From positions 1 through 31,632 of IMG/VR virus record IMGVR_UViG_3300045988_022658: DNA of 31,632 bases, one strand, 5' to 3'. This stretch comes from a virus. The notes under the pieces were generated by a model that saw only the letters and a list, made by a program, of their open reading frames with translations, was not told the origin of the DNA and did not search any database. Below are positions 56 to 30,574 of the stretch, one piece after another. The first letter of the stretch is position 1; each line of letters starts with the position of its first letter. A program made the position numbers and the translations under genes.

Positions 56-354
56 CGCTCACGCCCGTTTTTGATAGCGTTTGCTGGATGCAAATCAAGC
101 TGGAGGATGCCAGAGCGGACATCGCAGAAGATGGGCTGACCGCCGAGTATGATAACGGCGGTGGGCAGACCGGTATCCGCGAAAATCCGGCATTCAAGGC
201 ATACAAAGCTCTGTGGAAGTCTTACTGTGCCGGGCTCCAAATCCTCCTGGCGGAGCTGCCGGACAGTGCAAAAGCCGCTGCGGCAGCTGCCGGGCAAAAA
301 ACTGCCCCGGAAACAGCGTTGGCCCTTGTGCTTGGCAAGCGAAAGGATGCGTGA
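1..354 (+). CDS. terS: Terminase small subunit (P27-family-like), 3' part; the gene starts at 31515 and crosses the circular junction
   Basis: The frame of ORF 7..354 is open back to base 1. It is the same frame as ATG 31515 read through the terminal duplicate, with no stops. TGA 352-354 lies 2 nt before the terL ATG. Synteny is HNH-terS-terL. Confidence 0.75.
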   Translation, partial: RKMTRFYRENGVDAEKIDALTPVFDSVCWMQIKLEDARADIAEDGLTAEYDNGGGQTGIRENPAFKAYKALWKSYCAGLQILLAELPDSAKAAAAAAGQKTAPETALALVLGKRKDA

Positions 355-356
355 CG

Positions 357-1799
357 ATGGCAGCGGATCGCATTGGATCGCAGACACCGAGAATTCAGGT
401 GGAGCCGGAGCGGGTGCGGTCTGATGGCGAGGATGCCGCAATCCTGATGGCGGCTTATGGCAACAGTCTGGATCCGTGGCAGCGGAGCGTGGTGGATTGC
501 TGGCTCGGGCGCGATGCGTCCGGCGCTTACAGCGTTACCTCCGCAGGTCTGGCGCTGCCGCGGCAGAACGGCAAAAACGTATGCCTGGAGGCGCGGGAAT
601 TTTTCGGGCTGGTGGTCAGCGGAGAGAAAATCCTGCATACGGCGCATCAGGTCCGGACGGCGAAAAAGAGCTTTAACCGGCTGGCGCAAATGTTTACCGA
701 CAAGCGCCACCCTGAGATCATTGCTCTGGTTAAAAACATCCGCCGAACCAATGGCGAGGAAGCCATTGAGCTGGTTAACGGCGGCGTGATCGAATTCTCC
801 TCACGGTCGCGGCAGGCTGTCCGCGGCTTTGACGGATTCAGCTTGGTTGTGTACGATGAGGCACAGGAGCTGACGGACGATCAGGTGGAAGCTATTATGG
901 CAACGCTGGCAGCATCGGCTACCGGCACCAGACAGATTATCTATACCGGGACACCCCCATATCCGGGGTGCCCCGGTACTGTTTTCCGCAGGCGGCGCAC
1001 TGCCTGCCTCCAAGCTCCCGGTGCACATGATGCATGGCACGAGTGGAGCGTGGACGGTGACGATGTAGAAAGGATCAACGTTGACGATCGGGACCTGTGG
1101 TACCAGACCAATCCGGCGCTGGGCATCCATCTCACCGAGGATTTTACCGCCGAGGAGCTGCGGAGCATGAGCCGGGACGGCTTTGCCCGAGAGCGGCTGG
1201 GCTGGTGGAGCCCGATGCTGACAGAGCAGGCGGACTTTGCCCTGAACAAAGCCGTCTGGGAAACGTGTGCATCGGAGGAACGGAAGCCGGAGGGCAAAAC
1301 CGCCTACGGCGTAAAGTTTGCCGCTGACGGGTCCGCCGTGTGCCTGTGCGGCGCTGTAATCCCCCAGGAGGGCCCGGCGCGGATCTCGCTGATTGATATG
1401 CAGCCCTGCGGCCGTGGCATCCGGTGGCTGGCAGACTGGCTGAATGCCCGGTATGACCGCGCCAGCTGCGTGGTGATTGACGGGCGCAACGGCGTGGATG
1501 TGCTGGTGGATCGGATCTCCGATACCTGGCGGGCAAAGGATGCTGTTGTCCGCGCCAATACCAAAAATGTAATTGCGGCGGTATCCGTGCTGACGGATGC
1601 CGTCAACGATGGATCGCTCAGCTGGTACAAGCCTCAGGCGGCGCTGAACGACAGCGCCGTTACCGCAACGAAACGGACATTCGGCGGCGGGTACGGATTT
1701 GGCGGAGACAACAGCCTGCCGATCGAGGCTTGCGCCCTGGCTCTCTGGGGTGCAAAGACCAGTAAGCGGGACCCCAACCGCAAAATGAGAATCGGGTAA
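357..1799 (+). CDS. terL: Terminase large subunit
   Basis: 480 aa. Walker A-like LPRQNGKN and Walker B-like LVVYDEAQE. ATG 357 is preferred over the in-frame ATG 213, which overlaps terS. Confidence 0.9.
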   Translation: MAADRIGSQTPRIQVEPERVRSDGEDAAILMAAYGNSLDPWQRSVVDCWLGRDASGAYSVTSAGLALPRQNGKNVCLEAREFFGLVVSGEKILHTAHQVRTAKKSFNRLAQMFTDKRHPEIIALVKNIRRTNGEEAIELVNGGVIEFSSRSRQAVRGFDGFSLVVYDEAQELTDDQVEAIMATLAASATGTRQIIYTGTPPYPGCPGTVFRRRRTACLQAPGAHDAWHEWSVDGDDVERINVDDRDLWYQTNPALGIHLTEDFTAEELRSMSRDGFARERLGWWSPMLTEQADFALNKAVWETCASEERKPEGKTAYGVKFAADGSAVCLCGAVIPQEGPARISLIDMQPCGRGIRWLADWLNARYDRASCVVIDGRNGVDVLVDRISDTWRAKDAVVRANTKNVIAAVSVLTDAVNDGSLSWYKPQAALNDSAVTATKRTFGGGYGFGGDNSLPIEACALALWGAKTSKRDPNRKMRIG

Positions 1800-1811
1800 G
1801 AGGGTGAAGAA

Positions 1812-3242
1812 ATGATAAGTCTGAATTTTGGACACGTCCAGGGGCTGGTCGATACGGAACAGCAGCTGCTGGTGGAGCTTGCCGACGTGTACAACTACCA
1901 TCAGGGAAAAAACGCCACCAAGGACAAGTATTATGAGGGTCAAGTCACGCTGAAGGACGTCAATATTGGCATTGCTCTGCCGAACGGACTGAATAATCTG
2001 GATGTTGGGTGCAACTGGGGGCAGAAGGCTGTGGACGTGCTGGCAGCCCGGTCCATGTTTGACGGCTTTGTGGGCGCAAACGGCAATGACACTACGGCAC
2101 TGGCGGAAATCATCGAGAAAAACCGCATGGTGGCTGAGTACCAGAAAGCGTGCCGGGATGAACTGAAGTATGGATGCGTCTTTGCTACGCTGTCCCCCGA
2201 CCAGTCTCTCGGATGTAAAATCCGCTGGCACAGCCCGGCTACCGCATCGGCGCTGTGGGACGGCGACAAGGGACGAATCTCCTGCGGCATGGCGATCATC
2301 GACACAGCCAAGGACGAAAAATACAAGGACAGCTGGACGCCGTCCCTGGTGAATCTCTACACCGACAAAGCCATTATCGTGCTTAGCCGCACGCAGAACG
2401 GTTGGAATGTGAAAAACCGGGTGACGCACAGCATCGGCAGACCGATTATGGAGCCTATGGTGTGGAATGCCACAAACGGAAAGCCCTTCGGGCGCTCCCG
2501 GCTGAAACACCCCATCCGGACGCTGATTGACGATTATATCCGGATCCTTGCCAACGCTACCATTGCGCTGGAATTCGATACCACGCCGCAGAAGTACATT
2601 CTCGGTGTCACCGATGAGCAGTACGATGCGATTGTGTCGAATAAGTTCCGCCAATATGTTGGTAGCATCCTCGCCGCGACGAGAAACCATGAAAGTGGGG
2701 AAAATCCGGTTTTCGGTCAGCTCGCCCAGGGCAGCCTCAGCCCCCATGTGGACAAGCTCCGGATGGTAGCAACACAGTTTTCCGCTGCCACCGGGCTGAC
2801 CGTGACGGATGTGGGCATTATCAACGACGCCAACCCCACCAGTTCGGACGCGATCCTTGCTCAGAGCCAGACGCTGGTGCTGATGGCGCAGCAGCTGAAC
2901 TCCGGCAATGGGGACAGCCTCAAGACCATTGCGCTGATGGCGCTGGCGGTTGCCCGGAATTGCAGTCTGGATGCGCTGGAGGATGCCGAAACGGACATTG
3001 TGGCGCATTTTAAAAATCCGGCGATGCCCAGCGTGGCGGTGACTGCGGATGCTGCCATTAAAATTGCTTCCGCCCGGCAGGAATTCGCTTCCACCGACAC
3101 GTTTTTGGAGATGATCGGATTCGATCAGGCTGACATCCGGCGCATTCGCGCTCAGGAGCAGCGGGTCAGGGGACAGAAGGTGCTGACGGAGTTGGACAGC
3201 GAGGATGATGTAGATGACAATCTCGGAGCGGGACTGGAATAA
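1812..3242 (+). CDS. Portal protein
   Basis: 476 aa, directly after terL, with RBS GAGGGTGA and an acidic C-terminus. Size and position are typical of a portal. Confidence 0.8.
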   Translation: MISLNFGHVQGLVDTEQQLLVELADVYNYHQGKNATKDKYYEGQVTLKDVNIGIALPNGLNNLDVGCNWGQKAVDVLAARSMFDGFVGANGNDTTALAEIIEKNRMVAEYQKACRDELKYGCVFATLSPDQSLGCKIRWHSPATASALWDGDKGRISCGMAIIDTAKDEKYKDSWTPSLVNLYTDKAIIVLSRTQNGWNVKNRVTHSIGRPIMEPMVWNATNGKPFGRSRLKHPIRTLIDDYIRILANATIALEFDTTPQKYILGVTDEQYDAIVSNKFRQYVGSILAATRNHESGENPVFGQLAQGSLSPHVDKLRMVATQFSAATGLTVTDVGIINDANPTSSDAILAQSQTLVLMAQQLNSGNGDSLKTIALMALAVARNCSLDALEDAETDIVAHFKNPAMPSVAVTADAAIKIASARQEFASTDTFLEMIGFDQADIRRIRAQEQRVRGQKVLTELDSEDDVDDNLGAGLE

Positions 3243-4344
3243 TTACGTCCAGCGGCTGTCCAAATTGGACAAACGCGCCGGGGACGCCATGGCAAAGTAC
3301 ATTGCCAAGTACGGCACGGAGGACACCGAGGAACTGATCGTCTATGCCAATGCGCTGGTGACAAAGTACGGCGAGGGCAGCGCGGAGCTGGCAGCCCAGA
3401 TGTACGATGATCTGGCAGCGGCGGAGGGTGTGACCGTCAGCCCCGCAGAGCCCGCCCAGCCGCCCAGCATGGCAGAGGTGGCAAAGGCTATTTATCGCAC
3501 ACTCGACAGCCCTCCGCTGATGGCAGGCGCCACCAGCCGGCTGGTAAAGCAGACCGGCGCGGACACCATCCTCAAAAACGCGCTGCGGGACGGGGCGGAA
3601 TTCGCCTGGATCCCAGGCGGCATGAGCTGCGCATTCTGTCTAACCCTGGCAAGCCGGGGATGGCAGCGGGCCAGTAAGAAGGCAATTAAGGGCGGTCACG
3701 CCCAGCATATTCACGCACACTGTACCTGCACCTATGCAATCCGCTTCTCCTCCAAGACAAACGTTGCCGGATATGATCCGGACAAGTACCTTCGGATGTA
3801 CGAAAACGCCGAGGGCAGCACTCCCAGCGAGAAAATCAACTCCATGCGCCGGGCGCAGCGGGAAGAGAATAAGGAGCTGGTGAACGCCCAGCAGCGGGAA
3901 GCCCGCCGGAAACGGCAGGAGCGGGAAAACGGCTCCGACCCTAGCTGGAAGAAAATCACGGTTGAGGGCTCGACAAGGGCTGGGAATCGTGGTAAAATAA
4001 GCACAGATAAACTGTTCCCTGTGAACCCCGTCACCGGGCAGTCGTATACACTGCACACGCTCACGATTGACAGCGCCCAGTTTGGCGCGAAAATCGGCAA
4101 GCACGCGCAGGACTATGGGCTGGACCCATCAGCCGAGAACACGCGGGAGTTCTTCCGGAATGAGATTAACCGCATTGTAAACGACGCGGATGAACGGCGC
4201 TATGGCGACTGGCGCGGTCAGGAGTATCCGGTTGTATTCCACATCAAGGGCGACGATGTTGTTGTGGAGAGCAAGGACGGAGAGTTTATCACGATTTTGA
4301 AGGGAGGCGTATCCAATGCGCGGGTTAAAAACGCAGGAAAGTGA
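3214..4344 (+). CDS. MuF/SPP1 gp7-like head morphogenesis (minor capsid) protein with a C-terminal toxin-like extension
   Basis: Sits just after the portal gene. Cys/His cluster MSCAFCLTLASRGW...HAQHIHAHCTCTY is typical of MuF-type proteins. A KRE-rich linker is followed by a distinct ~110-aa C-terminal module (FGAKIGKHAQDYGLD...). Confidence 0.8.
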   Translation: MTISERDWNNYVQRLSKLDKRAGDAMAKYIAKYGTEDTEELIVYANALVTKYGEGSAELAAQMYDDLAAAEGVTVSPAEPAQPPSMAEVAKAIYRTLDSPPLMAGATSRLVKQTGADTILKNALRDGAEFAWIPGGMSCAFCLTLASRGWQRASKKAIKGGHAQHIHAHCTCTYAIRFSSKTNVAGYDPDKYLRMYENAEGSTPSEKINSMRRAQREENKELVNAQQREARRKRQERENGSDPSWKKITVEGSTRAGNRGKISTDKLFPVNPVTGQSYTLHTLTIDSAQFGAKIGKHAQDYGLDPSAENTREFFRNEINRIVNDADERRYGDWRGQEYPVVFHIKGDDVVVESKDGEFITILKGGVSNARVKNAGK

Positions 4345-4630
4345 AAAATTCAATCGCTTCTGGGCCCTGATCCAAACTGCGGCAGCCAAAAAAGGATGTA
4401 TGTTCTTTGGGTACGCCGGAGAAGGTCGAGACTTCTCTACAAGCGATATGGAGGGAGAGGACTTCGGCGGCTGGCTGGTGCCCATGGAAAGCGTAGATCC
4501 GTTTGAACGTGTTTGGGCCTCTGATCCGGCGGCTTTGTTCCAGTCACCCCCTTCTGGGACGGAGTTTACCTTCGCAATCTGGAAAAACCAGGCCGGAAAC
4601 ATAACGGTTGATTTTAAGAATTTTCAATAA
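4316..4630 (+). CDS. Hypothetical acidic 104-aa protein; candidate immunity partner of the MuF C-terminal module
   Basis: ATG 4316 is preceded by GGGAGG at 8-nt spacing. It overlaps the last 29 nt of the MuF gene and is followed immediately by a hairpin terminator. Confidence 0.6.
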   Translation: MRGLKTQESEKFNRFWALIQTAAAKKGCMFFGYAGEGRDFSTSDMEGEDFGGWLVPMESVDPFERVWASDPAALFQSPPSGTEFTFAIWKNQAGNITVDFKNFQ

Positions 4631-4660
4631 ACCACGATGCAGCTGCACCGTGGTTTATTC
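4627..4660 (+). terminator. Hairpin terminator after the immunity-like ORF
   Basis: Perfect 10-bp stem ATAAACCACG / CGTGGTTTAT (4627-4636 / 4649-4658), whose 3' arm runs into TTTATT. Confidence 0.5.
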
Positions 4661-4683
4661 ATGCCCGGAGAAAGGAAACACAA

Positions 4684-4875
4684 ATGAAAGATTCAGATGG
4701 CGGCAGCGGTGTGCGCATTGGCTTTTGCGGGCTGCTGACGCTTGTTTTTATCGTGCTGAAACTCACCGGCGTTATCAATTGGTCTTGGATTTGGGTGCTG
4801 GCGCCTGTGTGGGCTTCGGCTTTGGTTTGGATTGGCATTCTTGTGGTAATCGCGCTGATCGAACACAGGAGCTGA
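4684..4875 (+). CDS. Small 63-aa membrane protein (two predicted TM helices, Trp-rich)
   Basis: RBS GAAAGGA. Hydrophobic text GFCGLLTLVFIVLKLTGVINWSWIWVLAPVWASALVWIGILVVIALI. Terminators lie on both sides. Confidence 0.65.
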   Translation: MKDSDGGSGVRIGFCGLLTLVFIVLKLTGVINWSWIWVLAPVWASALVWIGILVVIALIEHRS

Positions 4876-4903
4876 GCAATCTATAAAACTTCATATGCAA
4901 TTG

Positions 4904-4933
4904 GCAGCACCGGATACCGGCGCTGCTATTTTT
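4904..4933 (+). terminator. Rho-independent terminator
   Basis: Stem GCAGCACCGG / CCGGCGCTGC (one mismatch), 3-nt loop, then TATTTTT. Confidence 0.7.
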
Positions 4934-4981
4934 GTATAAATTTACGCCACGGCGGCGGGACAAGCCGGAAAGGAGACCATT

Positions 4982-5476
4982 ATGGAAAAAGAAACTGTGA
5001 ATCAGGAAAAAACAAACGGCGGCACTGGGTCCGGAACCCCGGAGCGTACTTTTACCCAGTCGGAACTGAACGCCATCGTTACGGATCGGCTGAGCCGGGA
5101 GCGGGAGCAGTACGCAGATTATGCAGCCCTCAAGGAGAAGGCTGAGAAATACGATGCTGCCCAGGAAGCAGATAAGACCGACCTCCAGAAAGCCACAGAT
5201 AAGGTTGCAGCGCTCCAGGCCCAGGTGGAAGCATACACCAAGGCCGACAACCTCCGGAGGATCCGGGAGAAGGTCAGCAAGGAAACCGGCGTACCGGCAA
5301 GCCTTCTGTATGGCGAAGATGAGGACAGCTGCAAGGCACAGGCGCAGGCGATCCTGGACTATGCCAAGCCCCAGACCGGCGGAACTGCGATCCGGGACGG
5401 CGGCGAGCCTCAGGGTAAGCCGGGGGGCAGCACACGGGACCAGTTCGCGGACTGGTTTAACAAAGCAACAAAATGA
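4982..5476 (+). CDS. Capsid scaffolding protein
   Basis: 164 aa, coiled-coil and charged (ERTFTQSELNAIVTDRLSRERE...). RBS AAGGAG. Lies immediately upstream of the major capsid gene. Confidence 0.75.
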   Translation: MEKETVNQEKTNGGTGSGTPERTFTQSELNAIVTDRLSREREQYADYAALKEKAEKYDAAQEADKTDLQKATDKVAALQAQVEAYTKADNLRRIREKVSKETGVPASLLYGEDEDSCKAQAQAILDYAKPQTGGTAIRDGGEPQGKPGGSTRDQFADWFNKATK

Positions 5477-5493
5477 AAGTGAGGAATTAAACT

Positions 5494-6387
5494 ATGGCAA
5501 TCGATTTGAACAGAACCAGCTCCATCTCCCTGCCTACGGCGGTGGCATCGGAGATTTTGCAGAAGACCCAGGAGGACTCCGCTGTTATGGCTCTGGCACG
5601 GCAGATTACGCTGCCGGGTCTTGGCGTGACCATCCCAGTTATCACCGGCGATCCCGAAGCCGGATGGGTAGGGGAGACCGAGAAAAAGCCCGTAAAGCGC
5701 GGCAGTCTTGCAACCAAGGTGATTACCCCGTATACTCTGGCGGTCATTGTGCCGTTCTCGAACCAGTTCAAGCGGGACGCCTCGGCGCTGTACGATGCGC
5801 TGGTCCAGCGGCTCCCCAAGGCACTGGGCAAGGCGTTTGACAAGACCGTATTCGGCAGCCTTGCCGTCCCCGGATCCAATTTTGACACCCTCAAGAGCTG
5901 CACCGCTCAGGAGATCGGCACCAACACCTATAACGGTCTGGTGGCTGCGGATGCGGACATTGCCGACCACGACGGCATTCTCAACGGCTGGGTACTCTCT
6001 CCCAAGGGCAAGAGCCTGCTGCTAACTGCGGTGGACGGTAACAAGCGCCCGCTGTTCATCAACAACGTGGCGGAGGGTGCTGTTCCCATGATTCTGAGTG
6101 CGCCGGTGCAGCAGAGCAAGGGCGCGTACATTGCCCCGGTAGCAGCCAGTGACGGCCCTCCCAAGGTCGAGGCTGTGCCTGCCACCGTTGGCTATGCTGG
6201 TGACTGGACTCAGGCGGTTTATGGCACTGTGGAGGGCGTACAGATTGCGGTCTCCGATCAGGCTACCCTGACCGACGGCAGCACCACCATTAACCTGTTC
6301 GAGCAGAATATGTTCGCCGTGCGCGCTGAGATTGAGGTCGGTTTCCGCTGCGACACCAGCGTGTTTAACCGACTGACCAAGGCGTAA
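5494..6387 (+). CDS. Major capsid protein (HK97-fold family)
   Basis: 297 aa. ITLPGLGVTIPVITGDPEAGWVGETEKKPV matches the conserved N-terminal pattern of HK97-type capsid proteins. Synteny supports the call. Confidence 0.85.
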   Translation: MAIDLNRTSSISLPTAVASEILQKTQEDSAVMALARQITLPGLGVTIPVITGDPEAGWVGETEKKPVKRGSLATKVITPYTLAVIVPFSNQFKRDASALYDALVQRLPKALGKAFDKTVFGSLAVPGSNFDTLKSCTAQEIGTNTYNGLVAADADIADHDGILNGWVLSPKGKSLLLTAVDGNKRPLFINNVAEGAVPMILSAPVQQSKGAYIAPVAASDGPPKVEAVPATVGYAGDWTQAVYGTVEGVQIAVSDQATLTDGSTTINLFEQNMFAVRAEIEVGFRCDTSVFNRLTKA

Positions 6388-6389
6388 GC

Positions 6390-6788
6390 ATGGACGACAA
6401 GCGGACAGCATACGCCACCTCCTACGATGTGGAAGAAGGCTTTCGAACCCTGACGCAGGAGGAACAGAATCGCGCCGAAGCGCTGCTGCTGGAGGCTGCT
6501 ATCATCGTTGACGCCTACAACCGGGCTGCCAGCGAGGACGCCAAACATCTGGTTTCCTGCCGGATGGTCCGGCGGCAGCTGGGTGCGGGGGACGGTGGAG
6601 ACATCCAATTTCCCATGGGGTCTACTCAGGGCAGCATGAGCGCCATGGGCTACAGCCAGAGCTGGACCATGAGCAGCGGCGCGGTGGGTGAGCTGTATTT
6701 GTCCAAATTGGACAAAAAACTTCTGGGAGTGGGTAATCGGATCGGTTCCCACTCTCCGCTGGAGGATATGACCGATGCAGGGGATTGA
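6390..6788 (+). CDS. Head-tail connector (gp6-like adaptor)
   Basis: 132 aa, first gene after the capsid gene. Call is based on position and size. Confidence 0.6.
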   Translation: MDDKRTAYATSYDVEEGFRTLTQEEQNRAEALLLEAAIIVDAYNRAASEDAKHLVSCRMVRRQLGAGDGGDIQFPMGSTQGSMSAMGYSQSWTMSSGAVGELYLSKLDKKLLGVGNRIGSHSPLEDMTDAGD

Positions 6789-7104
6789 CATCATCCGATA
6801 CAACAAAACCCAGACCGGTTTGGACGGCTTCGGTGCTCCGATTTATTCGGAGACACCTGAGGTCGTCCACAATGTGCTGATTGGGGAGCCTGCCACCGAG
6901 GACATCGTCAACGATCTCCAGCTGTACGGCAAGCGCCTTGCCTATACGCTGGCGCTGCCCAAGGGCGACAGCCGCGACTGGGATAATGTCGCGGTGGAAT
7001 TCTTCGGGCAGAAATTCCGGACGTATGGCGCGGTGACGGAGGGCATTGAGGCAATGATCCCGCTACGCTGGAACCGAAAGGTCAAGGTGGAACGGTATGA
7101 GTAA
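6775..7104 (+). CDS. Head closure / head-tail adaptor protein
   Basis: 109 aa, RBS GGAGGA, overlaps its neighbours. Call is based on position. Confidence 0.6.
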   Translation: MQGIDIIRYNKTQTGLDGFGAPIYSETPEVVHNVLIGEPATEDIVNDLQLYGKRLAYTLALPKGDSRDWDNVAVEFFGQKFRTYGAVTEGIEAMIPLRWNRKVKVERYE

Positions 7105-7387
7105 GCTGAAAATTGAGCTGGACAGCGCCGGGATTCAGGCGCTGCTGAAATCTCAGGAGATCATAGATGTGCTCCAGGAGCAGGCGGACAGCATCTGTGC
7201 CCAGTTGGGCAGCCAGTACCAGACCAGCCAGCATATCGGCAAAACCCGCGCCAATGTGTCCGTGTACACCGAGGATCCGGAAGCGCTCCGAAATAACTCG
7301 GAGCGCAACACCATGCTCAAGGCGATGGGCGTTAAAGTCCCGGCGAGCAAGTCCAAGGCCAAGGGGAAGGGGAGTAAGAAAACGTGA
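7097..7387 (+). CDS. Head-tail joining protein (hypothetical; in the HK97 gp10-like position)
   Basis: 96 aa, translationally coupled, Lys-rich C-terminus. Confidence 0.5.
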   Translation: MSKLKIELDSAGIQALLKSQEIIDVLQEQADSICAQLGSQYQTSQHIGKTRANVSVYTEDPEALRNNSERNTMLKAMGVKVPASKSKAKGKGSKKT

Positions 7388-17028: not shown

Positions 17029-17298
17029 ATGGATTTTGGAATTGCTGGCGTTGCGGCTATTACCGTACTCGCCTATCTGATCGGGCAGGGCGTAAAAGCC
17101 ACTGGCATTGCGAATAAGTGGATCCCGGTTATTTGTGGTATTGTTGGACTGGCGCTGGGCATTGTGGCATTGTACATCATGCCAGATTTTCCAGCAGGTG
17201 ACCCCATTACCGCTGCTGCGATTGGCGCGGTTTCCGGTTTTGCCGCAACTGGCATCCACCAGGCTGCAAAACAGCAGAAGGAGGACAACAATGGCTAA
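17029..17298 (+). CDS. Holin
   Basis: 89 aa with multiple TM segments and a charged C-terminus (KQQKEDNNG). Overlaps the endolysin start. Confidence 0.75.
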   Translation: MDFGIAGVAAITVLAYLIGQGVKATGIANKWIPVICGIVGLALGIVALYIMPDFPAGDPITAAAIGAVSGFAATGIHQAAKQQKEDNNG

Positions 17299-18322
17299 AA
17301 TTATCGGCATTGACGTTTCCGAGCACAACGGCTCCATCAACTGGGAGGCGGTTAAAAAGGCGGGAGTAAGCTTCGCCTTTGTCCGCACGGGCTATGGAGT
17401 ATCCCATGTGGACAACTATTTCAAACGCAACATGGAGGGCGCTCTTGCCCAGGGCATCCCCGTGGGCATCTACCATTTTTCTTACGCCCTGAATGCTGCC
17501 GGGGCAAAAGCAGAAGCGGAATACGTCCTCAAGCTGATCCAGCCGTACAAGGACAAGATCACCCTCCCGGTGTTCTACGATTTTGAGTATGACACCGTCT
17601 CCTACGCCAAAAAGCAGGGTGTCACTCTGGGCAAGGAAGCGTTTAACGCCCATACTGTGGCATTCTGTGAGACGATCAAGGCGGCTGGCTATACGCCCGG
17701 TACATACTACAACCTGGACTATCTGCGCCGGTATGTGGACATTAACCGGGTGGGTGGATACGTCCAGTGGTATGCGCAGTATGCCAGCACAGCGTCTGCG
17801 GCTGGCTGGGCAATCTGGCAGTACAGCAGTTCCTACACCATCCCCGGATGCTCTGGGCGGTTTGACGTCAATGTGCTGGCGGATGCAAGCCTGCTGACTG
17901 GCAGCACCGGCAAATACACCATCGGCTGGCACCGGGACTCCAAGGGCTGGTGGTACGCCAACAGCACCACTACCTACTATAAAGAGCAGTGGGCAAAGAT
18001 CAATGATAAGTGGTATTACTTTGGCAAGGAGGGCTACGTGATGGAAAACGCGTGGAAGGTTGAGGCAGGCGGCGATACCTACTATCTGGGCGCTGATGGT
18101 GATATGCAGACCAGTATGGTTGTTGGGCTTGGCAGTGATGGCAAGCTACAGCCGATTGAGCGGTATTATCACCTGATCTCCGAGCTGCCGGATTATTACC
18201 GCGCGGAAATCGACCCGCTGATTGCAGCCGGGACCCTGAAGGGCAAAGCCGGCGAAGGGGAGAATCTGGTGCTGGACCTCAGTGAAAGCGCCCTGCGGGC
18301 GATTATTATTTGTAATCGGTAA
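17291..18322 (+). CDS. Endolysin: GH25 muramidase with cell-wall-binding repeats
   Basis: MAKIIGIDVSEHNGSINWEAVKKAGVSFAFVRTGYG is a GH25 signature. The C-terminal GWWY...WYYFGKEGYV...TYYLGADGDM repeats resemble choline/cell-wall-binding repeats. Confidence 0.9.
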   Translation: MAKIIGIDVSEHNGSINWEAVKKAGVSFAFVRTGYGVSHVDNYFKRNMEGALAQGIPVGIYHFSYALNAAGAKAEAEYVLKLIQPYKDKITLPVFYDFEYDTVSYAKKQGVTLGKEAFNAHTVAFCETIKAAGYTPGTYYNLDYLRRYVDINRVGGYVQWYAQYASTASAAGWAIWQYSSSYTIPGCSGRFDVNVLADASLLTGSTGKYTIGWHRDSKGWWYANSTTTYYKEQWAKINDKWYYFGKEGYVMENAWKVEAGGDTYYLGADGDMQTSMVVGLGSDGKLQPIERYYHLISELPDYYRAEIDPLIAAGTLKGKAGEGENLVLDLSESALRAIIICNR

Positions 18323-18610: not shown

Positions 18611-19768
18611 CTACATGGCAGTTTTAATATACTCTTGGAGCTTATCCAAAGAATTTTTCTTTTTTTCATCTCGCAGGTGGGTGTATATCCCAATCGTTGT
18701 TTCCACATCACTGTGACCAAGCAAGTGCTGGGCAGTATATACGTCCACCCCTGCCTCAAATAGGAGGGTGGCATACCCATGCCGCAGGACGTGCGCCGTC
18801 AGTGTTGGCTTGTAATGCGTCACTGTATATTTACGTTTCGCCTTGCTGATCCGGTGCTCAGTGGTAGTGGTCACAAAGCCCATGTCCTTGCAGTAATGCA
18901 GCCACCGGCGGCGATATGTCGATACCGGCATGGGCTTTGCCGGATTCTCACCAGGGAACACATAGTCTGTGTTTTTTGCCGTGCTTGGACGATGCAGCAC
19001 AGCCTCCAGCGGTTCCAAAAGTGGGAGCTGCCGTATCCCCGCTTCTGTCTTCGGGTCCTTAATCTTTGGTGCCCCAGAGTAGTAGGAGACCGATTTGCGG
19101 ACCGTAATCGTCTTGCTTTTGAAATCTATATCGCCCCATTGAATTGCCATTGCTTCGCCGTATCGCAGTCCTGTGCTCATCAAGAACAGCGCATACACTC
19201 CCCAATACGCAGTAGTTGCCTGTGCTCTGATTTGACGTACAATTTCATCCTCTGGCGCATTGCGCTTCATCGGAGGCTTTGCCCCCTTCGGCACTCTTAC
19301 ATTGTCCACAGGGTTGGTGGTGATATCTCGCGGAAGTTCCGGGCACACGATAGCGTGCCGGAATATCATCTTGTACATGATCTTCTGCTTTTGGATTGTG
19401 CTTTTGGCATAGCCCTGGAGCTTGAGCCATTCAAGGTGATTCTGCACGTCCGCAGAGGTAATAGACGCTATTGGTTCGCCCCCAAAGCGCTCCATTGCTC
19501 GTTTATAGTGAGCAGCGTAACAAGCCTTTGTGCCGTCTTCTAAGCCGTCCCACGCAGCATCATGCCAAGACTCCGCAGCTTCACCAAAGGTCAAGGGCTT
19601 CGGCTCCGCATTCTCCAGCTCCTGGATTTTGTGATAGAGTTTTTCCGGATCACGGGAGTATGCAGGCTTCCGCTTATCGCTTCCCGGCGGATAATACCAC
19701 CCCATATAACGCCCATCAGCTCGAAGGGTGTACATAGCTGCATAGTCTATTTTTTTGCTTCTGGGCAT
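18611..19768 (-). CDS. int: Tyrosine integrase
   Basis: 385 aa. HVLRHGYATLLFEAGVDVYTAQHLLGHSDVETTIGIYTHL carries the H-x-x-R ... H ... Y catalytic signature. RBS AGGTGG. Confidence 0.95.
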   Translation of the reverse strand: MPRSKKIDYAAMYTLRADGRYMGWYYPPGSDKRKPAYSRDPEKLYHKIQELENAEPKPLTFGEAAESWHDAAWDGLEDGTKACYAAHYKRAMERFGGEPIASITSADVQNHLEWLKLQGYAKSTIQKQKIMYKMIFRHAIVCPELPRDITTNPVDNVRVPKGAKPPMKRNAPEDEIVRQIRAQATTAYWGVYALFLMSTGLRYGEAMAIQWGDIDFKSKTITVRKSVSYYSGAPKIKDPKTEAGIRQLPLLEPLEAVLHRPSTAKNTDYVFPGENPAKPMPVSTYRRRWLHYCKDMGFVTTTTEHRISKAKRKYTVTHYKPTLTAHVLRHGYATLLFEAGVDVYTAQHLLGHSDVETTIGIYTHLRDEKKKNSLDKLQEYIKTAM

Positions 19769-20414: not shown

Positions 20415-20452
20415 CCCGCTCCAGTGCGCCAACACTGGGGCGGGATTTTTTT
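20415..20452 (+). terminator. Rho-independent terminator between convergent genes
   Basis: Stem CCCGCTCCAGTG / CACTGGGGCGGG (one G-U pair) followed by ATTTTTTT. Confidence 0.7.
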
Positions 20453-20993
20453 ATTCCGTATCCTTCAACAATTTATTCAACGCCTCATTAAGCTGGCTTA
20501 GCTGTCGTATAAGTATGAAATTCTGTTCCACAATCGCGCGTTGGTAATTGACCTGAACTTTGTCTGCGGCGTTCACTGATCGGTCCCCGCCCAAAAGACT
20601 GAGCGTAACGCCCGCATCCATTAGCCCGGTTCCAGCAAGTTCCGCAGCGATACGTGCAGCAGAGGCGACATCTCGACCATTGGTGAGGCTATCAAGCCCA
20701 TATTTTCTAAGAATGGCTTTTGCCTTTTCGGCTTGTTTTCTGTCTAAGCCAAAGTACGGGTCGATATCCCTTGGGTCAACCGGCTGTGGCGCGGATGGTT
20801 TCTCGGCTTCCGTTTTTGCGATTGCACCAGAGTTAAAACGCCCTTTGCATCCCGGAGTTGTGCAGCCTTTATTTGCTTCCCAACAGCTCTTGTGCATTAC
20901 TACATGGCAATGCGGGCACATTGTCGCATCTGAATTTCGCAGTATTTTCCCCTTGCAATAGCTGCAAGGGAATTTTGTCATATCCACAAGCAT
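20451..20993 (-). CDS. Prok-RING-type zinc-finger protein with an uncharacterised helical C-terminal domain
   Basis: N-terminus CSYCKGKILRNSDATMCPHCHVVMHKSCWEANKGCTTPGC has the pattern C-x2-C ... C-P-x-C ... H-x2-C-W ... GC ... GC. RBS AAAGGAGAG. Confidence 0.7.
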   Translation of the reverse strand: MLVDMTKFPCSYCKGKILRNSDATMCPHCHVVMHKSCWEANKGCTTPGCKGRFNSGAIAKTEAEKPSAPQPVDPRDIDPYFGLDRKQAEKAKAILRKYGLDSLTNGRDVASAARIAAELAGTGLMDAGVTLSLLGGDRSVNAADKVQVNYQRAIVEQNFILIRQLSQLNEALNKLLKDTE

Positions 20994-23683: not shown

Positions 23684-23910
23684 TCCAGAGCGGCGTGCAA
23701 GGCTATGTTACCGGCACGGCGACGGTCACAGTCAACTTTCCGATTGACCTACATGGCAATCTGGATATCAACTGCCGTCAATGCTGGTACTTCCGGCGGA
23801 CTTATTCCACCTGCGGCCTTAATGGCCAGGTATGCGAGTACCCGGACAAGTACATTGGGTCTCGGTGCCCGTTAAAATTCGGAGAGGAGGACGACGATGG
23901 GAGTCTATGA
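23680..23910 (+). CDS. Small Cys-rich hypothetical protein
   Basis: 76 aa, ATGA coupling. Contains CRQCWYF...CGLNGQVCEYP...CP. Confidence 0.6.
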   Translation: MIQSGVQGYVTGTATVTVNFPIDLHGNLDINCRQCWYFRRTYSTCGLNGQVCEYPDKYIGSRCPLKFGEEDDDGSL

Positions 23911-24547
23911 TAAGCTGCTGGCAATTCAGGCAGAGCTCAAAGCCCCCAAAAACCAGCATAGTGTTTTCGGCAACTTTAACTATCGCAGTTGCGAGGATAT
24001 TCTGGAGGCAGTCAAGCCACTGTGTAAGGCGCACAATGCGCTGGTGATGATCTCCGACGAGCTGGAGTATATCAACGGCAGGTTTTACGTCAAGGCCGTG
24101 GCGACGTTTGCAGATGCCGAAACCGGTGGAAACGTGCATGTATCTGCATATGCAAGAGAGCCGGAAAACAAGAAGGGCATGGATGATTGCCAGCTTACTG
24201 GAGCGGCGTCAAGCTACGCGCGGAAGTATGCACTCAATGGGCTGTTTTGCATCGACGATGCAAAAGACCCCGACACTGACGCATATGGAAGACAGACCGG
24301 CAAGGGCGCCACCAAAAAGCAGCCCGATAATCAGCCGGACAAGCCCACACCCCCCGCTCCGCCCCCGGCTGTGGTCAAGTGCAAGGACTGTGGAAAGCCC
24401 ATTACTGATGTGACCTGGGCAAACGGCTCTAAAACCGGCGCCAAGACGATGGTCAACAAGACCATTCAGAAATACGGCGTGCCGCTCTGCGGTGACTGCT
24501 ACACCCTGAGGCGGGCGAAGGAGCAGACCGATGGAAACCAGAGCTGA
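23897..24547 (+). CDS. erf: ERF-family single-strand annealing protein with a C-terminal zinc ribbon
   Basis: KLLAIQAELKAPKNQHSVFGNFNYRSCEDILEAVKPLCKAHN...AASSYARKYALNGLFCIDD fits the ERF pattern. C-terminal CKDCG...CGDC. Confidence 0.75.
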   Translation: MGVYDKLLAIQAELKAPKNQHSVFGNFNYRSCEDILEAVKPLCKAHNALVMISDELEYINGRFYVKAVATFADAETGGNVHVSAYAREPENKKGMDDCQLTGAASSYARKYALNGLFCIDDAKDPDTDAYGRQTGKGATKKQPDNQPDKPTPPAPPPAVVKCKDCGKPITDVTWANGSKTGAKTMVNKTIQKYGVPLCGDCYTLRRAKEQTDGNQS

Positions 24548-28216: not shown

Positions 28217-28356
28217 GCTACACTGAGGCATTGCACATTGTAACCGATTACTCAACTGCACTGAGCATGGGCTATGCGCTGGATAAAGACTGCTGCCTTG
28301 AGTACGCTGAAGCGTTGCGGATCGTGCTCCAGCGGGCGGAACAGGAGACAATATGA
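28213..28356 (+). CDS. 47-aa hypothetical protein
   Basis: Not in the ORF track because it is under 60 aa. ATGA overlaps at both ends link it to its neighbours. Confidence 0.45.
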   Translation: MSYTEALHIVTDYSTALSMGYALDKDCCLEYAEALRIVLQRAEQETI

Positions 28357-29231
28357 GCGAATGGTATGACGAGAGCCTTGACAGGCTTAGGACGGCGGCA
28401 CGGCTGTCAGAACAGTATTATAAAAAGCCTCTGGTTGTGACCACTTCCGGCGGCAAAGACAGCTCTGTATGTGTTGATTTGGCTATCAAGGCTGGGATCA
28501 ATTTTGAGGTACTCCATAATCACACCACGGCAGACGCTCCGGAGACAGTCCGATTTGTCAGGGACGAGTTCCGGCGGCTGGAGCTGATGGGGATTAAATG
28601 CACGATCAACTGGCCCATGTACAAGGGGCAGCGCACATCCATGTGGGATTTGATTCCACAGACGCGCATGCCGCCTACACGGCCGGTGAGGTACTGCTGT
28701 GCGGTGCTTAAAGAGCACGGCGGCACTGGGAGATTTATCACCACAGGGGTACGCTGGGCAGAATCCACCGCCCGAAAGAACAACCGAGGAGCGTTTGAGC
28801 GAAGCCACCGAAACAAGGAGAAACGGATCATCATCAACGACAATGACCCGGATCGGCTGCTGTTTGAAAATTGCTCAATCAAAGCGAAACGGGTTTGCAA
28901 TCCAATAATTGACTGGGAGGACGAAGACGTTTGGCACTACATTGAGGAAAACCATGTGCCGGTGAATCCACTATATGCGGAGGGATTTAACAGGGTTGGA
29001 TGCATCGGGTGTCCGCTAGCCGGGAAACGCAAACGCGAGGCCGAATTTGAGCGGTGGCCGAAATACAAGACGGCGTATATCTTAGCATTTGACAGGATGC
29101 TGGAGGGGCGGAAACGGCGCTGGCAATCTCAAAATGATTGGCTAACCGGAACCGATGTGTTTAACTGGTGGATGGAGTACGATGTGCTGCCGGGGCAAAT
29201 GGAAATGGAGGATGTGCTATGTGAGTCTTGA
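28353..29231 (+). CDS. PAPS-reductase / DndC-like PP-loop ATP pyrophosphatase family protein
   Basis: PP-loop motif VVTTSGGKDSSV. C-terminal NRVGCIGCPLAGKRKRE Cys motif as in DndC/IbrA-type proteins. Confidence 0.75.
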   Translation: MSEWYDESLDRLRTAARLSEQYYKKPLVVTTSGGKDSSVCVDLAIKAGINFEVLHNHTTADAPETVRFVRDEFRRLELMGIKCTINWPMYKGQRTSMWDLIPQTRMPPTRPVRYCCAVLKEHGGTGRFITTGVRWAESTARKNNRGAFERSHRNKEKRIIINDNDPDRLLFENCSIKAKRVCNPIIDWEDEDVWHYIEENHVPVNPLYAEGFNRVGCIGCPLAGKRKREAEFERWPKYKTAYILAFDRMLEGRKRRWQSQNDWLTGTDVFNWWMEYDVLPGQMEMEDVLCES

Positions 29232-29616: not shown

Positions 29617-29813
29617 AATGGGTTAGCCCATGGAGGAAAATGCACATGAAAGAAAATCCTGATGCCAACGCTATCTTGAACAACATTGGTGCCCTCGCTG
29701 AGATCGCTGGATTTATGCGGGATCAGCTGGTGACGCGGGGCTTTACCCGAGAAGAAGCAGTAGCTATCGTGGATCATTACATTTGCGCAACGTGCGCAGG
29801 TCAGAAATCATGA
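29613..29813 (+). CDS. Small hypothetical protein
   Basis: ATGA coupling at 29613. An alternative start, ATG 29646, lies 9 nt after GGAGG. Confidence 0.5.
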   Translation: MKWVSPWRKMHMKENPDANAILNNIGALAEIAGFMRDQLVTRGFTREEAVAIVDHYICATCAGQKS

Positions 29814-30574
29814 AGAAACTCAAAACAATGCGTGCAGGTCGGCTGGTGCGCAGCGTCGTGTACACTGCGCCCTCCCGTCAGCCGGAAAGCCCGAAGCCCC
29901 GTGGCCCGCGGCGGCAGATCAGCACAGAAGCCCAGGCAAGGTTTAATCTCTCAAAGTCTACGGACAAATTGGAAATGCTGATCGCGTTGAATTTTCCCAG
30001 CGGATTTTGGTGGGTCACTCTTACATATGATGATGCCCATCTACCGGAGGATCGCAAGGCTGCCGGACAGATCATGCGGAAATACATCCGGAAACTGCGG
30101 GCCGCCTGGAAGCTCAAGGGCAAGACCCCACTCTATATATATTGTACCCAGCAGGTGCAGGACGATGGCAGCCTCCGGCTGCACCACCACATGGTTCTGT
30201 CCGCTGCCGACGGTGGCAAGGATGATTTTGACACCATCCGGGCGCTTTGGACATACGGATCTAATATTTATATAGAGTGGCAAGACGACGATCAGTCTGT
30301 GACCGACAAAGCCACCTACATGACCCATGAGCCACGGGACCATGGCAAACCCCGTCCGGGGGAACAAACCTGGACCCCATGCCGGGGGCTGAAACGTCCG
30401 GAAGTCGAGACCATTGATGTGCCCGATGAGGTGACTCTGGAGGCACCGGCTGGAGCCGTGACCATTGAGCGGGATGGTACGCGGAACGAGTGGGGAGAGT
30501 TCGCATTTATTAAATACTGGCTGCCAAAACCAGGCCAGTTATACGGTCCGCATTTTAATTCTGGGGGGAGGTAG
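29810..30574 (+). CDS. HUH-superfamily rolling-circle replication initiator-like protein
   Basis: Motif 1 is FWWVTLTYDDAHLP, motif 2 is LRLHHHMVL, and the candidate catalytic Tyr lies in DKATYMTHE. ATGA coupling. Confidence 0.65.
   Translation: MKKLKTMRAGRLVRSVVYTAPSRQPESPKPRGPRRQISTEAQARFNLSKSTDKLEMLIALNFPSGFWWVTLTYDDAHLPEDRKAAGQIMRKYIRKLRAAWKLKGKTPLYIYCTQQVQDDGSLRLHHHMVLSAADGGKDDFDTIRALWTYGSNIYIEWQDDDQSVTDKATYMTHEPRDHGKPRPGEQTWTPCRGLKRPEVETIDVPDEVTLEAPAGAVTIERDGTRNEWGEFAFIKYWLPKPGQLYGPHFNSGGR

Follow-up and report, generated by a model that had tools for sequence, protein, structure and literature searches.

A predicted colicin D-type RNase module with a linked candidate immunity gene on a VG15-type phage head protein

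The tRNase colicin D cuts tRNA-Arg between positions 38 and 39. Its essential residues are K607, K608, H611, D614, and S677, and the Tox-ColD signature comprises the elements [KH]K, Hxx[ED], [ST], and [TS]xxK (PMC3482391); H611 acts as the general base (PMC9990079). The delivery systems of Tox-ColD toxins listed by Zhang et al. 2012 include "MuF," and the immunity proteins are of the ImmD or Imm64 type (PMC3482391). Tox-ColD with MuF delivery has thus already been catalogued, and the kind of system considered here is a known one. Jamet et al. 2017 make no mention of colicin D in their main text (PMC5576092). Among MuF toxins, those that we found characterised by experiment in the literature are all (p)ppApp synthetases (Apk2), with no nuclease type among them, and their physiological role is still called unknown by their authors (PMC12226406).

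The window analysed here is the whole stretch of 31,632 nucleotides of the viral record IMGVR_UViG_3300045988_022658. Its head module is arranged as a terminase-like gene (213-1799), the portal gene (1812-3242), the ORF at 3214-4344, a scaffold-like ORF, and an HK97-type capsid gene, and the synteny of portal and carrier genes is alike in loci L001, L003, and L005. The window also encodes a tyrosine integrase and a GH25 endolysin with choline-binding repeats, and relatives are found within long bacterial contigs, for example in Frisingicoccus caecimuris DSM 28559. Taken together, the integrase, the endolysin with its choline-binding repeats, and the MAG hosts fit a temperate phage of Gram-positive gut Clostridia. 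The features of the carrier gene and its surroundings are as follows.

1812..3242, plus strand: portal gene (PF05133 SPP1_portal, E 3.3e-15), overlapping the start of 3214-4344 by 29 nt
3214..4344, plus strand: full ORF of 376 residues, made up of carrier, linker, and C-terminal toxin module
3220..3810, plus strand: conserved carrier domain, residues 3-199, Pfam VG15 (PF25310, E 2.4e-47) and PHROG 193 (phrog_193, E 3.5e-32)
3628..3729, plus strand: Cys/His cluster C139-x2-C142 ... H162, H165, H167, C170, C172
18611-19768, minus strand: tyrosine integrase (E 2.9e-25)

The translation of 3214-4344 agrees with the protein quoted in the preliminary description of this DNA. This is a genuine gene and not a chance ORF, as it has at least 4493 homologues at E ≤ 0.001 (word-limited search) and is positioned between the portal gene and the scaffold and major-capsid genes. 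The preliminary description had taken residues 1 to about 200 for an ordinary MuF/gp7 core with a Cys/His cluster. The cluster, which reads C139-A-F-C142 ... H167-A-H-C170-T-C172, is there, and the domain does take the place of MuF (SPP1 gp7) beside the portal gene; the family assignment, however, is a different one, with Pfam giving the L5-gp15-like VG15 and no match to Phage_Mu_F (PF04233). All seven Cys and His residues of the cluster are invariant in 26 homologues, and the cluster presumably binds metal. In an hhalign comparison of the VG15 N-termini with Phage_Mu_F carriers, nothing but this cluster is paired, its partner being their CxxC...HxxCRC region, and the pairing is not significant (Prob 2.5%, E 0.018). 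This profile-profile comparison does not support VG15 as a divergent Phage_Mu_F domain. A search of the PDB with a profile of the N-terminal domain gave no match. Among 50,697 GenBank phage records searched by tblastn, relatives were found for the N-terminal domain only, mostly in actinophages, where they are annotated as "head maturation protease" or as hypothetical; neither the C-terminal module nor the immunity protein had any.

The carrier domain is followed by a segment in which C-termini have been exchanged, and its borders can be placed by comparison with related phages.

3826..4053, plus strand: basic Lys/Arg/Glu-rich linker, residues 205-280
4009..4628, plus strand: swapped cassette, consisting of the toxin module and the overlapping immunity candidate, as delimited by comparison with L003
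4626..4659, plus strand: hairpin at the right-hand end of the cassette, spanning the stop codon of the immunity gene (dG -17.6 kcal/mol, z -3.2)

The Lys/Arg/Glu-rich linker that had been described by eye is borne out, with 17 Lys or Arg and 10 Asp or Glu in its 76 residues and a pI of 10.4. Two recombination breakpoints lie inside it, one at nt 3903 relative to L005 and one at nt 4008/4009 relative to L003. The phage of L003 is 97% identical to the window over 214-4008 and 4629-7371, and between these stretches it carries an unrelated 613-nt segment; homology begins again within the hairpin. Position 4006 (residue 265), where the module had been proposed to begin, is thus nearly on the L003 breakpoint. 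The GC content of the cassette is 0.50-0.55 versus 0.57-0.65 in the flanks. Across different proteins, N-termini that are 94-97% identical are joined to unrelated C-termini, and the 120 closest N-terminal homologues include 22 unrelated C-terminal clusters and 15 short forms. Alternative C-termini recognised by Pfam include CdiA_C, Ntox50, and ADPrib_exo_Tox. The C-terminal module is therefore swappable, as the preliminary description had supposed, rather than invariant in all homologues, and it travels with the immunity gene as one cassette of ~620 nt between head-protein scaffolds.

The separate C-terminal module has the sequence that was originally quoted, and its folded part covers residues ~283-376 in an AlphaFold2 (AF2) model. 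Its features are listed below.

4054..4344, plus strand: colicin D-like BECR-fold module, residues 281-376, predicted from profile, AF2, and Foldseek results to be a metal-independent endoribonuclease
4090..4113, plus strand: predicted active-site helix motif K293-I-G-K296-H297-A-Q-D300, aligning by HMM to colicin D K608/K610/H611/D614
4291..4302, plus strand: [TS]xxK motif T360-I-L-K363 in the last β-strand, aligning to colicin D S677-G-W-K680

A single-sequence search of the PDB with residues 243-376 returned nothing but chance RNA polymerase matches (E > 0.4) and was uninformative, so a family profile was needed. When a profile of 23 module homologues was compared with 177,635 PDB sequences, it matched colicin D alone (1tfo_A, 1v74_A, 1tfk_A, and 5znm_A, at E 8.6e-9 to 1.5e-7), with no other PDB sequence at E ≤ 10. 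The module of the window scores 17.3-17.8 bits (E 0.004-0.006) against Pfam Colicin_D (PF11429), which is under the gathering threshold of 25 bits; this model is matched at E ≤ 1 by 16 of the 23 module relatives (best E 1.6e-7), and one relative, P0047, has a precomputed PF11429 match. Judged by the family profile, the module is significantly homologous to the tRNase domain of colicin D.

The predicted structure points the same way. The AF2 model of the ~96-residue module (pLDDT 87.4, pTM 0.79) has helices at model residues 7-21 and 28-43 followed by a four-stranded sheet, and the module is accordingly modelled with a BECR fold, in which N-terminal helices pack on a four-stranded antiparallel sheet. 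With this model as the Foldseek query, the colicin D tRNase takes ranks 1-5 (TM 0.57-0.62, prob 0.99-1.0), followed by colicin E5, RelE/YafQ, and BECR-type CdiA toxins (CdiA-CT). The Foldseek E-values of 8.7e-3 are modest, as a domain of only ~90 residues would lead one to expect. Of the likeness to colicin D and to phage BECR nucleases that had been noted by eye, the colicin D half is thus upheld by profile and fold comparison, whereas the PBECR families stay below threshold: PBECR2 (PF18810) is matched at E 0.002-0.017 by one of the 23 modules and by two of 10 carriers, under its cut-off of 27.1 bits. These sub-threshold matches led us to reject the PBECR families and to place the module with colicin D. 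Neither the C-terminal module nor the 104-residue ORF downstream has a family in PHROGs, and NCBIfam and PADLOC gave no match for the toxin-carrier protein or for the 104-residue protein.

The alignment with colicin D extends to the residues expected to be catalytic. In 43 unique modules, K293, H297, D/E300, and T/S360 are each conserved at 100% and K363 at 93% (40 of 43). The Tox-ColD signature is present, scored at K293, H297..D300, and T360..K363. The exception is the equivalent of colicin D K607, which is an Ala (A292) in the window copy and a Lys in 36 of the 43 modules. The module family also has invariant residues of its own, R311 and D348, that are absent from colicin D.

Directly downstream of the module, and partly within it, lies the ORF that had been put forward as its partner.

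4300..4307, plus strand: Shine-Dalgarno sequence AAGGGAGG for the immunity gene, ending 8 nt before the ATG
4316..4344, plus strand: dual-coding overlap of 29 nt, with the toxin tail N-A-R-V-K-N-A-G-K-stop in one frame and the immunity start M-R-G-L-K-T-Q-E-S in another
4316..4630, plus strand: candidate cognate immunity protein of 104 residues, acidic (pI 4.7), assigned from its linkage to the module

The partnership is a strict one. In every one of 44 viral loci, the module is followed directly by a homologue of 4316-4630, and of the 16 genome loci that were located through the 4316-4630 family, 14 have the module upstream. A related cassette is also carried by Frisingicoccus caecimuris DSM 28559, at locus L017. 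The pair occurs on VG15 carriers and also on true Phage_Mu_F and Phage_min_cap2 carriers, three carrier types in all. The family is absent where the C-terminus differs, and the small ORF (<150 residues) that directly follows the toxin module changes with the toxin domain, from 104 residues here to 86 residues in L003 and to a 122-residue YjcQ protein in L005. Distances among the toxins covary with those among the immunity proteins (r 0.73, Mantel 0 of 2000, overlapping parts excluded), a covariation that shared ancestry alone also predicts. The product of 4316-4630 is very probably the antidote of the toxin module.

The two genes are intertwined at the nucleotide level. The Shine-Dalgarno sequence is made of the toxin's conserved L-K-G-G codons, and 34 of 52 related loci have a similar sequence at the corresponding position; in 45 of the 52, the toxin and immunity genes overlap by 29-38 nt. 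Promoter-like sites were observed upstream of the immunity gene at 3970-3998 and 4067-4094 and are present in 23 of 47 related loci. The A-rich linker window contains such sites just as often, and they are therefore no evidence for an internal promoter that could express immunity in lysogens. One locus, L014, has a possible orphan immunity gene.

The AF2 model of the immunity candidate is confident (pLDDT 93.5). Pfam gave no meaningful match for the 104-residue ORF or for any of 38 relatives, and the family profile matches no PDB sequence at E ≤ 10. A fold search of the PDB with the model found no match either, though the library includes the colicin D entries 1v74, 1tfo, and 1tfk, which describe an ImmD or inhibitor complex. 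The one match in BFVD is to an uncharacterised phage protein. A confident model with no PDB fold match led us to reject ImmD, or any solved immunity fold, as the identity of this protein. The family is represented by 303 clusters at 50% identity among 1.84 billion proteins. We lean toward the view, with some reservation, that the 104-residue protein is the founder of an undescribed immunity family with a fold unseen in the PDB, specific for colicin D-clade RNases and held by a conserved dual-coding overlap, and that together with the VG15 carriers it extends the MuF system. If so, the toxin tail (LKGG..NARVKNA) would double as the ribosome-binding site, start codon, and first ~10 codons of the immunity gene.

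We propose that 3214-4344 encodes a MuF-type phage polymorphic toxin, in which a head-morphogenesis domain would bear an exchangeable C-terminal effector by way of a basic linker. In this phage, the effector would be a colicin D-clade BECR-fold endoribonuclease. We predict that its chemistry resembles that of colicin D, namely metal-independent cleavage of RNA, most likely of a tRNA, with H297 on the N-terminal helix as the general base, assisted from that helix by K293, K296, and D300 and from the last strand by T360 and K363. Members of Pfam Colicin_D cut different tRNAs at different sites, and the CdiA-CT toxins of this family from EC3006 and Kp342 cut the tRNA acceptor stem, not the anticodon loop (PMC9990079); the substrate of the module can therefore not be deduced from family membership. 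The immunity protein would be translated from the Shine-Dalgarno sequence and ATG that lie within the toxin's last codons, and in the producing cell the acidic 104-residue protein most likely inhibits the RNase by binding to it. The toxin-bearing protein may be packaged in the capsid and ejected with the DNA into the next cell, where its toxicity might serve to kill competitors or to take over the host. As the N-terminal domain is not detectably Phage_Mu_F, packaging has to be argued from the gene position and the shared cassette.

The same RNase could also have another purpose. As an early effector injected with the DNA, it would serve the phage by shutting off host translation or by destroying defence RNA or tRNA and would be no weapon against competitors, and the 104-residue protein would merely protect the producing cell late in infection. 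Such a role was proposed by Iyer et al. for MuF-fused BECR RNases (PMC5512222), and the translational coupling of the immunity gene to the toxin in a late head operon is better suited to protecting the cell while virions are assembled than to protecting a lysogen. However, the many C-terminal clusters on one scaffold and the exchange of cassettes with cognate immunity are hallmarks of polymorphic toxins, which serve competition. The possible orphan immunity gene and the promoter-like sites, weak as the latter are, also hint at expression outside the lytic cycle. We consider a purely phage-serving effector possible but less likely than not, with competition as the purpose that the cassette exchange suggests.

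It is unlikely that the pair is instead an intracellular toxin-antitoxin or an abortive-infection or addiction module of the prophage, with a toxin that is never delivered by the virion. The BECR fold is common to the RelE and YafQ toxins, and the partner gene is small, encodes an acidic protein, and is adjacent and overlapping, all of which would suit such a module. In complete loci, however, the toxin never stands alone but always forms the C-terminal end of a head protein, of which three scaffold types occur; the toxin gene precedes the immunity gene and is located inside a structural late operon; and the 104-residue protein has neither a Pfam match nor a DNA-binding antitoxin domain. It is more improbable still that the module has no catalytic activity and serves to bind RNA or DNA or as a structural domain, with the downstream ORF as an assembly chaperone: an inactive PBECR was described in phage Mu gpF (Mu gp30) by Iyer et al. 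(PMC5512222), and the window copy is not basic and has no Lys equivalent to K607, but the catalytic His, the acidic residue at +3, and the Thr/Ser of [TS]xxK are invariant in the 43 modules, with K363 in all except three, and a structural part would not be expected to be replaced by unrelated toxin domains or to be missing in short forms.

A colicin D-type toxin module with its cognate immunity gene on a head-protein carrier is thus, as far as the identity of the parts is concerned, an explanation in which we place considerable confidence. Delivery of the toxin by the virion, taken alone, has closer to an even chance of being correct.

New here are the family of the immunity protein, its dual-coding overlap with the toxin, and a carrier of the VG15 type. 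If the proposal is correct, VG15 carriers add to the MuF toxin system a family of head proteins that earlier surveys did not count, and the locus would provide the first tractable nuclease-type pair of phage-head toxin and immunity protein. The pair is compact, with a predicted RNase module and a partner of about a hundred residues each, and H297A, D300A, and T360A are clear point mutants to make. A natural isogenic comparison exists because the 97%-identical phage differs in the cassette only, and the partner protein combines a confident predicted structure with the lack of any characterised relative. The pair could be used to ask whether the toxin is packaged, which RNA is cut, whether immunity operates in lysogens or during assembly only, and how a new immunity fold blocks a BECR RNase. 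The practical value is modest, amounting to better annotation of a recurrent gene pair in phages of human and animal gut Clostridia, now labelled "head maturation protease" and "hypothetical."

Several described systems come close to this locus. The colicin D tRNase domain (PF11429; PDB 1V74, 1TFO, 1TFK, and 5ZNM) is the sole family of solved structure that the module profile matches and is its best structural match. They share the motifs K..KH..D (helix) and [ST]xxK (strand), and in both a C-terminal toxin of a modular protein is followed directly by the gene for a small immunity protein. Identity to colicin D is only ~27%, however, and the module is presumably delivered by a head protein of Gram-positive Clostridia phages instead of a colicin translocation/receptor module. 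The 104-residue partner is unrelated to ImmD in sequence and predicted fold, and whereas the tRNA-binding face of colicin D is strongly basic, the module is mildly acidic, with a pI of 5.9. The PBECR domains fused to MuF or portal proteins within polyvalent proteins (Iyer et al. 2017, PMC5512222) are likewise fusions to phage head proteins with predicted injection, but the module is closer to colicin D than to these domains, comes with its own immunity gene, and behaves like the cassette of a polymorphic toxin instead of forming one part of a polyvalent protein. The CdiA-CT toxins of the Colicin_D family from EC3006 and Kp342 share with it the swapping of C-terminal toxin/immunity cassettes on a conserved delivery protein (PMC9990079), although theirs is a type V secretion system of Proteobacteria. 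As to the MuF polymorphic toxins (PMC3482391; PMC5576092), the N-terminus here is VG15 (PF25310) and not Phage_Mu_F (PF04233), but the head-module gene adjoining the portal gene, the variable C-termini, the toxin-less short forms, the small ORF after the long forms, and the temperate phage are all features that this locus has in common with them.

ORF 3214-4344 (+) is a real gene whose translation is the 376-aa protein quoted in the preliminary description. It lies in the head module of the phage, with a scaffold-like ORF and the HK97-type major capsid gene downstream, and is preceded by:
1812-3242, portal gene (PF05133), directly 5' of ORF 3214-4344.

Pfam PF25310 "VG15" (E 2.4e-47) and PHROG 193 both match residues 3-199. 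This region had been read as a MuF/gp7 core; a conserved N-terminal domain is indeed present, but its Pfam assignment is VG15, and Phage_Mu_F was set aside as the family of the carrier. Profile-profile comparison did not detect a relationship of the VG15-type carrier to Phage_Mu_F. The Cys/His cluster described previously is found in this domain (C139-x2-C142 ... H162/H165/H167/C170/C172) and is invariant among 26 homologues; the expected linker follows at residues 205-280 and is basic (pI 10.4). The VG15-type domain (window 3214-3810) occupies the MuF/gp7 position with its invariant cluster, and it has relatives in deposited actinophages of Mycobacterium, Propionibacterium, and Arthrobacter (GenBank matches H4-H15) that are annotated as "head maturation protease" or hypothetical. 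The protease label, which PHROG 193 shares, may be a misnomer because no protease family is among the Pfam matches of the toxin gene product.

A separate domain, as had been proposed, is made up of the final ~96 residues; its confident AlphaFold model (pLDDT 87.4) has two helices and then a four-stranded sheet. Alone, the window module reaches only 17.3 bits against Pfam Colicin_D (E 0.006), below the threshold of 25. When relatives were collected and 23 C-terminal modules aligned, 16 of the 23 matched Colicin_D individually (best E 1.6e-7), and the profile of this alignment retrieved four colicin D entries and nothing else from 177,635 distinct PDB sequences (E 8.6e-9 to 1.5e-7). A Foldseek comparison of the model with the PDB placed colicin D tRNase at ranks 1-5 (TM 0.57-0.62, probability 0.99-1.0), with colicin E5, RelE/YafQ, and BECR-type CdiA toxins below. 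In the HMM alignment, Lys293, Lys296, His297, and Asp300 pair with colicin D Lys608, Lys610, His611, and Asp614, and Thr360..Lys363 pairs with Ser677..Lys680. The published Tox-ColD signature is [KH]K, Hxx[ED], [ST], and [TS]xxK, and Lys607, Lys608, His611, Asp614, and Ser677 are essential in colicin D (Zhang et al., PMC3482391), His611 being described as the general base (PMC9990079). Across 43 non-identical modules drawn from 58 loci, Lys293, His297, Asp/Glu300, and Thr/Ser360 are invariant, and Lys363 is retained in 93%. Taken together, homology, predicted fold, and catalytic signature place the module, on sequence and model grounds, in the colicin D clade of BECR RNases. The earlier colicin-D/BECR guess is supported as regards colicin D, and PBECR was set aside as the home of the module. 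Some caution is called for: the position of colicin D Lys607 is Ala in the window copy and Lys in most relatives, and the module is mildly acidic. Because Colicin_D-family toxins vary in the tRNA cut and in the cleavage site (PMC9990079), family membership does not fix the substrate.

The candidate partner, ORF 4316-4630, encodes a 104-aa protein of pI 4.7 with homologues of about 100 aa, and a library of 1.84 billion proteins contains 303 clusters of its family at 50% identity. HMMs of both proteins were used to assess linkage in two sets of loci, 44 viral ones fetched via the toxin module and 16 from genomes fetched via the immunity ORF. The immunity ORF lies immediately downstream of the module in 44 of 44 toxin-bearing viral loci, and the module lies immediately upstream in 14 of the 16 genome loci. 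One exception, a Lachnospiraceae MAG (L014), has an immunity homologue at 1094-1402 with no toxin module upstream and is possibly an orphan immunity gene; the other (L021) is a 38-residue tblastn match with no HMM match to either protein. The immunity ORF is absent from loci with the same N terminus but a different C terminus, and the pair occurs on three carriers: VG15, Phage_Mu_F (PF04233), and Phage_min_cap2 (PF06152). Elsewhere, the immunity ORF is split in two beside an intact toxin (L026, 4248-4566), or a truncated remnant of both genes is left (L022, 3689-4144).

An overlap of 29-38 nt between the two genes is seen in 45 of 52 loci. In the window copy, the N-A codons of the toxin supply the immunity ATG at 4316, and the stretch encoding the toxin tail NARVKNAGK also encodes, in a different frame, the immunity N terminus MRGLKTQES. 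The ribosome-binding site also lies within the toxin gene:
4300-4307, Shine-Dalgarno AAGGGAGG of the immunity gene, spelled by the toxin's conserved L-K-G-G codons.

With overlapping parts excluded, distances between toxins correlate with those between immunity proteins (r 0.73, Mantel 0 of 2000), and some correlation is expected from linkage anyway. On this sequence evidence, we regard ORF 4316-4630 as the cognate partner of the module. Its model is confident (pLDDT 93.5) and has no fold match in the PDB and one in BFVD, an uncharacterized phage protein. Because neither Pfam, NCBIfam, PADLOC, nor PDB sequences gave a match either, ImmD, the classical colicin D immunity protein, is ruled out as its identity.

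The C terminus is not an invariant structural part of the protein, the alternative that the preliminary description named as a refutation. N termini 94-97% identical to that of the window protein carry unrelated C termini, and the 120 closest homologues include 22 unrelated C-terminal clusters, some with Pfam labels (among them CdiA_C, Ntox50, ADPrib_exo_Tox), and 15 short forms without the extension. In one relative (L003), window 214-4008 and 4629-7371 are matched at 97% identity, and an unrelated 613-nt segment stands in place of 4009-4628, that is, of the module plus ORF 4316-4630. In another (L005), homology breaks at window 3903 and 4883, and the contig carries a module with a faint CdiA_C match and a YjcQ-family ORF. 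GC content is 0.50-0.55 in the cassette versus 0.57-0.65 in its flanks. The immunity stop codon falls within a stable hairpin at 4626-4659 (dG -17.6 kcal/mol, z -3.2), precisely at the point (4629) from which L003 is again homologous. This hairpin may act as a terminator or attenuator, or it may mark a recombination boundary. A strongly hydrophobic 63-aa ORF (4684-4875, +) is located between the immunity candidate and the scaffold-like ORF of 164 aa; it encodes a predicted small membrane protein with no NCBIfam match and is retained in L001 and L003 but replaced along with the toxin cassette in L005.

The locus encodes a head-module protein to which an exchangeable colicin-D-type RNase module is fused, along with a small acidic protein that is translationally coupled to it and strictly co-inherited. 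Following the precedent of colicin D and MuF toxins (PMC3482391, PMC5576092, PMC5512222), the module would cut tRNA or another RNA without metal, with His297 as general base, and the 104-aa protein would bind and block it inside the producer. By way of its N-terminal domain, the toxin protein could enter the capsid close to the portal and then exit with the DNA, possibly to kill non-immune competitors or to take over the host. Protection during assembly is the favored immunity role because the immunity gene is coupled to the late operon. Sites resembling sigma-70 promoters occur within the toxin gene, 5' of the immunity gene (3970-3998 and 4067-4094, +); the whole region has 5 such sites versus 1.1 expected from shuffles, and in 23 of 47 related loci comparable sites precede the immunity ATG by 250-290 nt. 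The A-rich linker window yields them at the same rate, so they are no evidence of independent immunity expression and too weak a sign to support expression in lysogens.

Genes elsewhere in the window are as follows:
17108-18322 (+), GH25 endolysin with choline-binding repeats
18611-19768 (-), tyrosine integrase
20451-20993 (-), Prok-RING_1 protein
23897-24547 (+), ERF recombinase
28353-29231 (+), PAPS-reductase-domain protein
29783-30574 (+), REP_ORF2-G2P-like replication protein

Judged by these genes, the window appears to cover most of the genome of a temperate, siphovirus-type phage with a Gram-positive host. Near-identical cassettes occur in MAG records of very different taxa, including Lachnospiraceae and Oribacterium contigs (L007/L008) and a proteobacterial Oxalobacter sp. 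bin (L011). This scatter probably reflects mis-binning of prophage contigs, and host assignment is therefore unreliable below the level of Clostridia.

Overall, the observation in the preliminary description is confirmed, and its interpretation is supported with two corrections, the VG15 carrier and colicin D rather than PBECR. The finding would not surprise a specialist, but the locus offers a well-defined nuclease-type phage-head toxin/immunity pair that lends itself to testing, and the predicted fold of the partner has no PDB match. MuF was already among the Tox-ColD delivery systems, with ImmD and Imm64 as immunity proteins (Zhang et al. 2012, PMC3482391); MuF toxins of temperate phages were defined by Jamet et al. 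2017 (PMC5576092), whose main text does not mention colicin D; and PBECR RNases are known on MuF and portal proteins (Iyer et al. 2017, PMC5512222). Thus, the kind of system is known and the pair is new. Characterized MuF toxins in the literature compared are (p)ppApp synthetases (Apk2) only (PMC12226406). The pair is missing from all 50,697 deposited phage genomes searched by tblastn with both proteins; all occurrences found were in metagenomic contigs, MAGs, and a small number of isolate genomes, the majority from Clostridia of the gut or rumen. Also new are the conserved dual-coding overlap of the two genes and the VG15 type of the carrier. Whereas MuF toxins have a Phage_Mu_F domain, the carrier here is VG15-type, and whereas colicin D is paired with ImmD, the 104-aa partner is unlike it and adds an uncharacterized immunity family to a known combination of Tox-ColD with MuF delivery.
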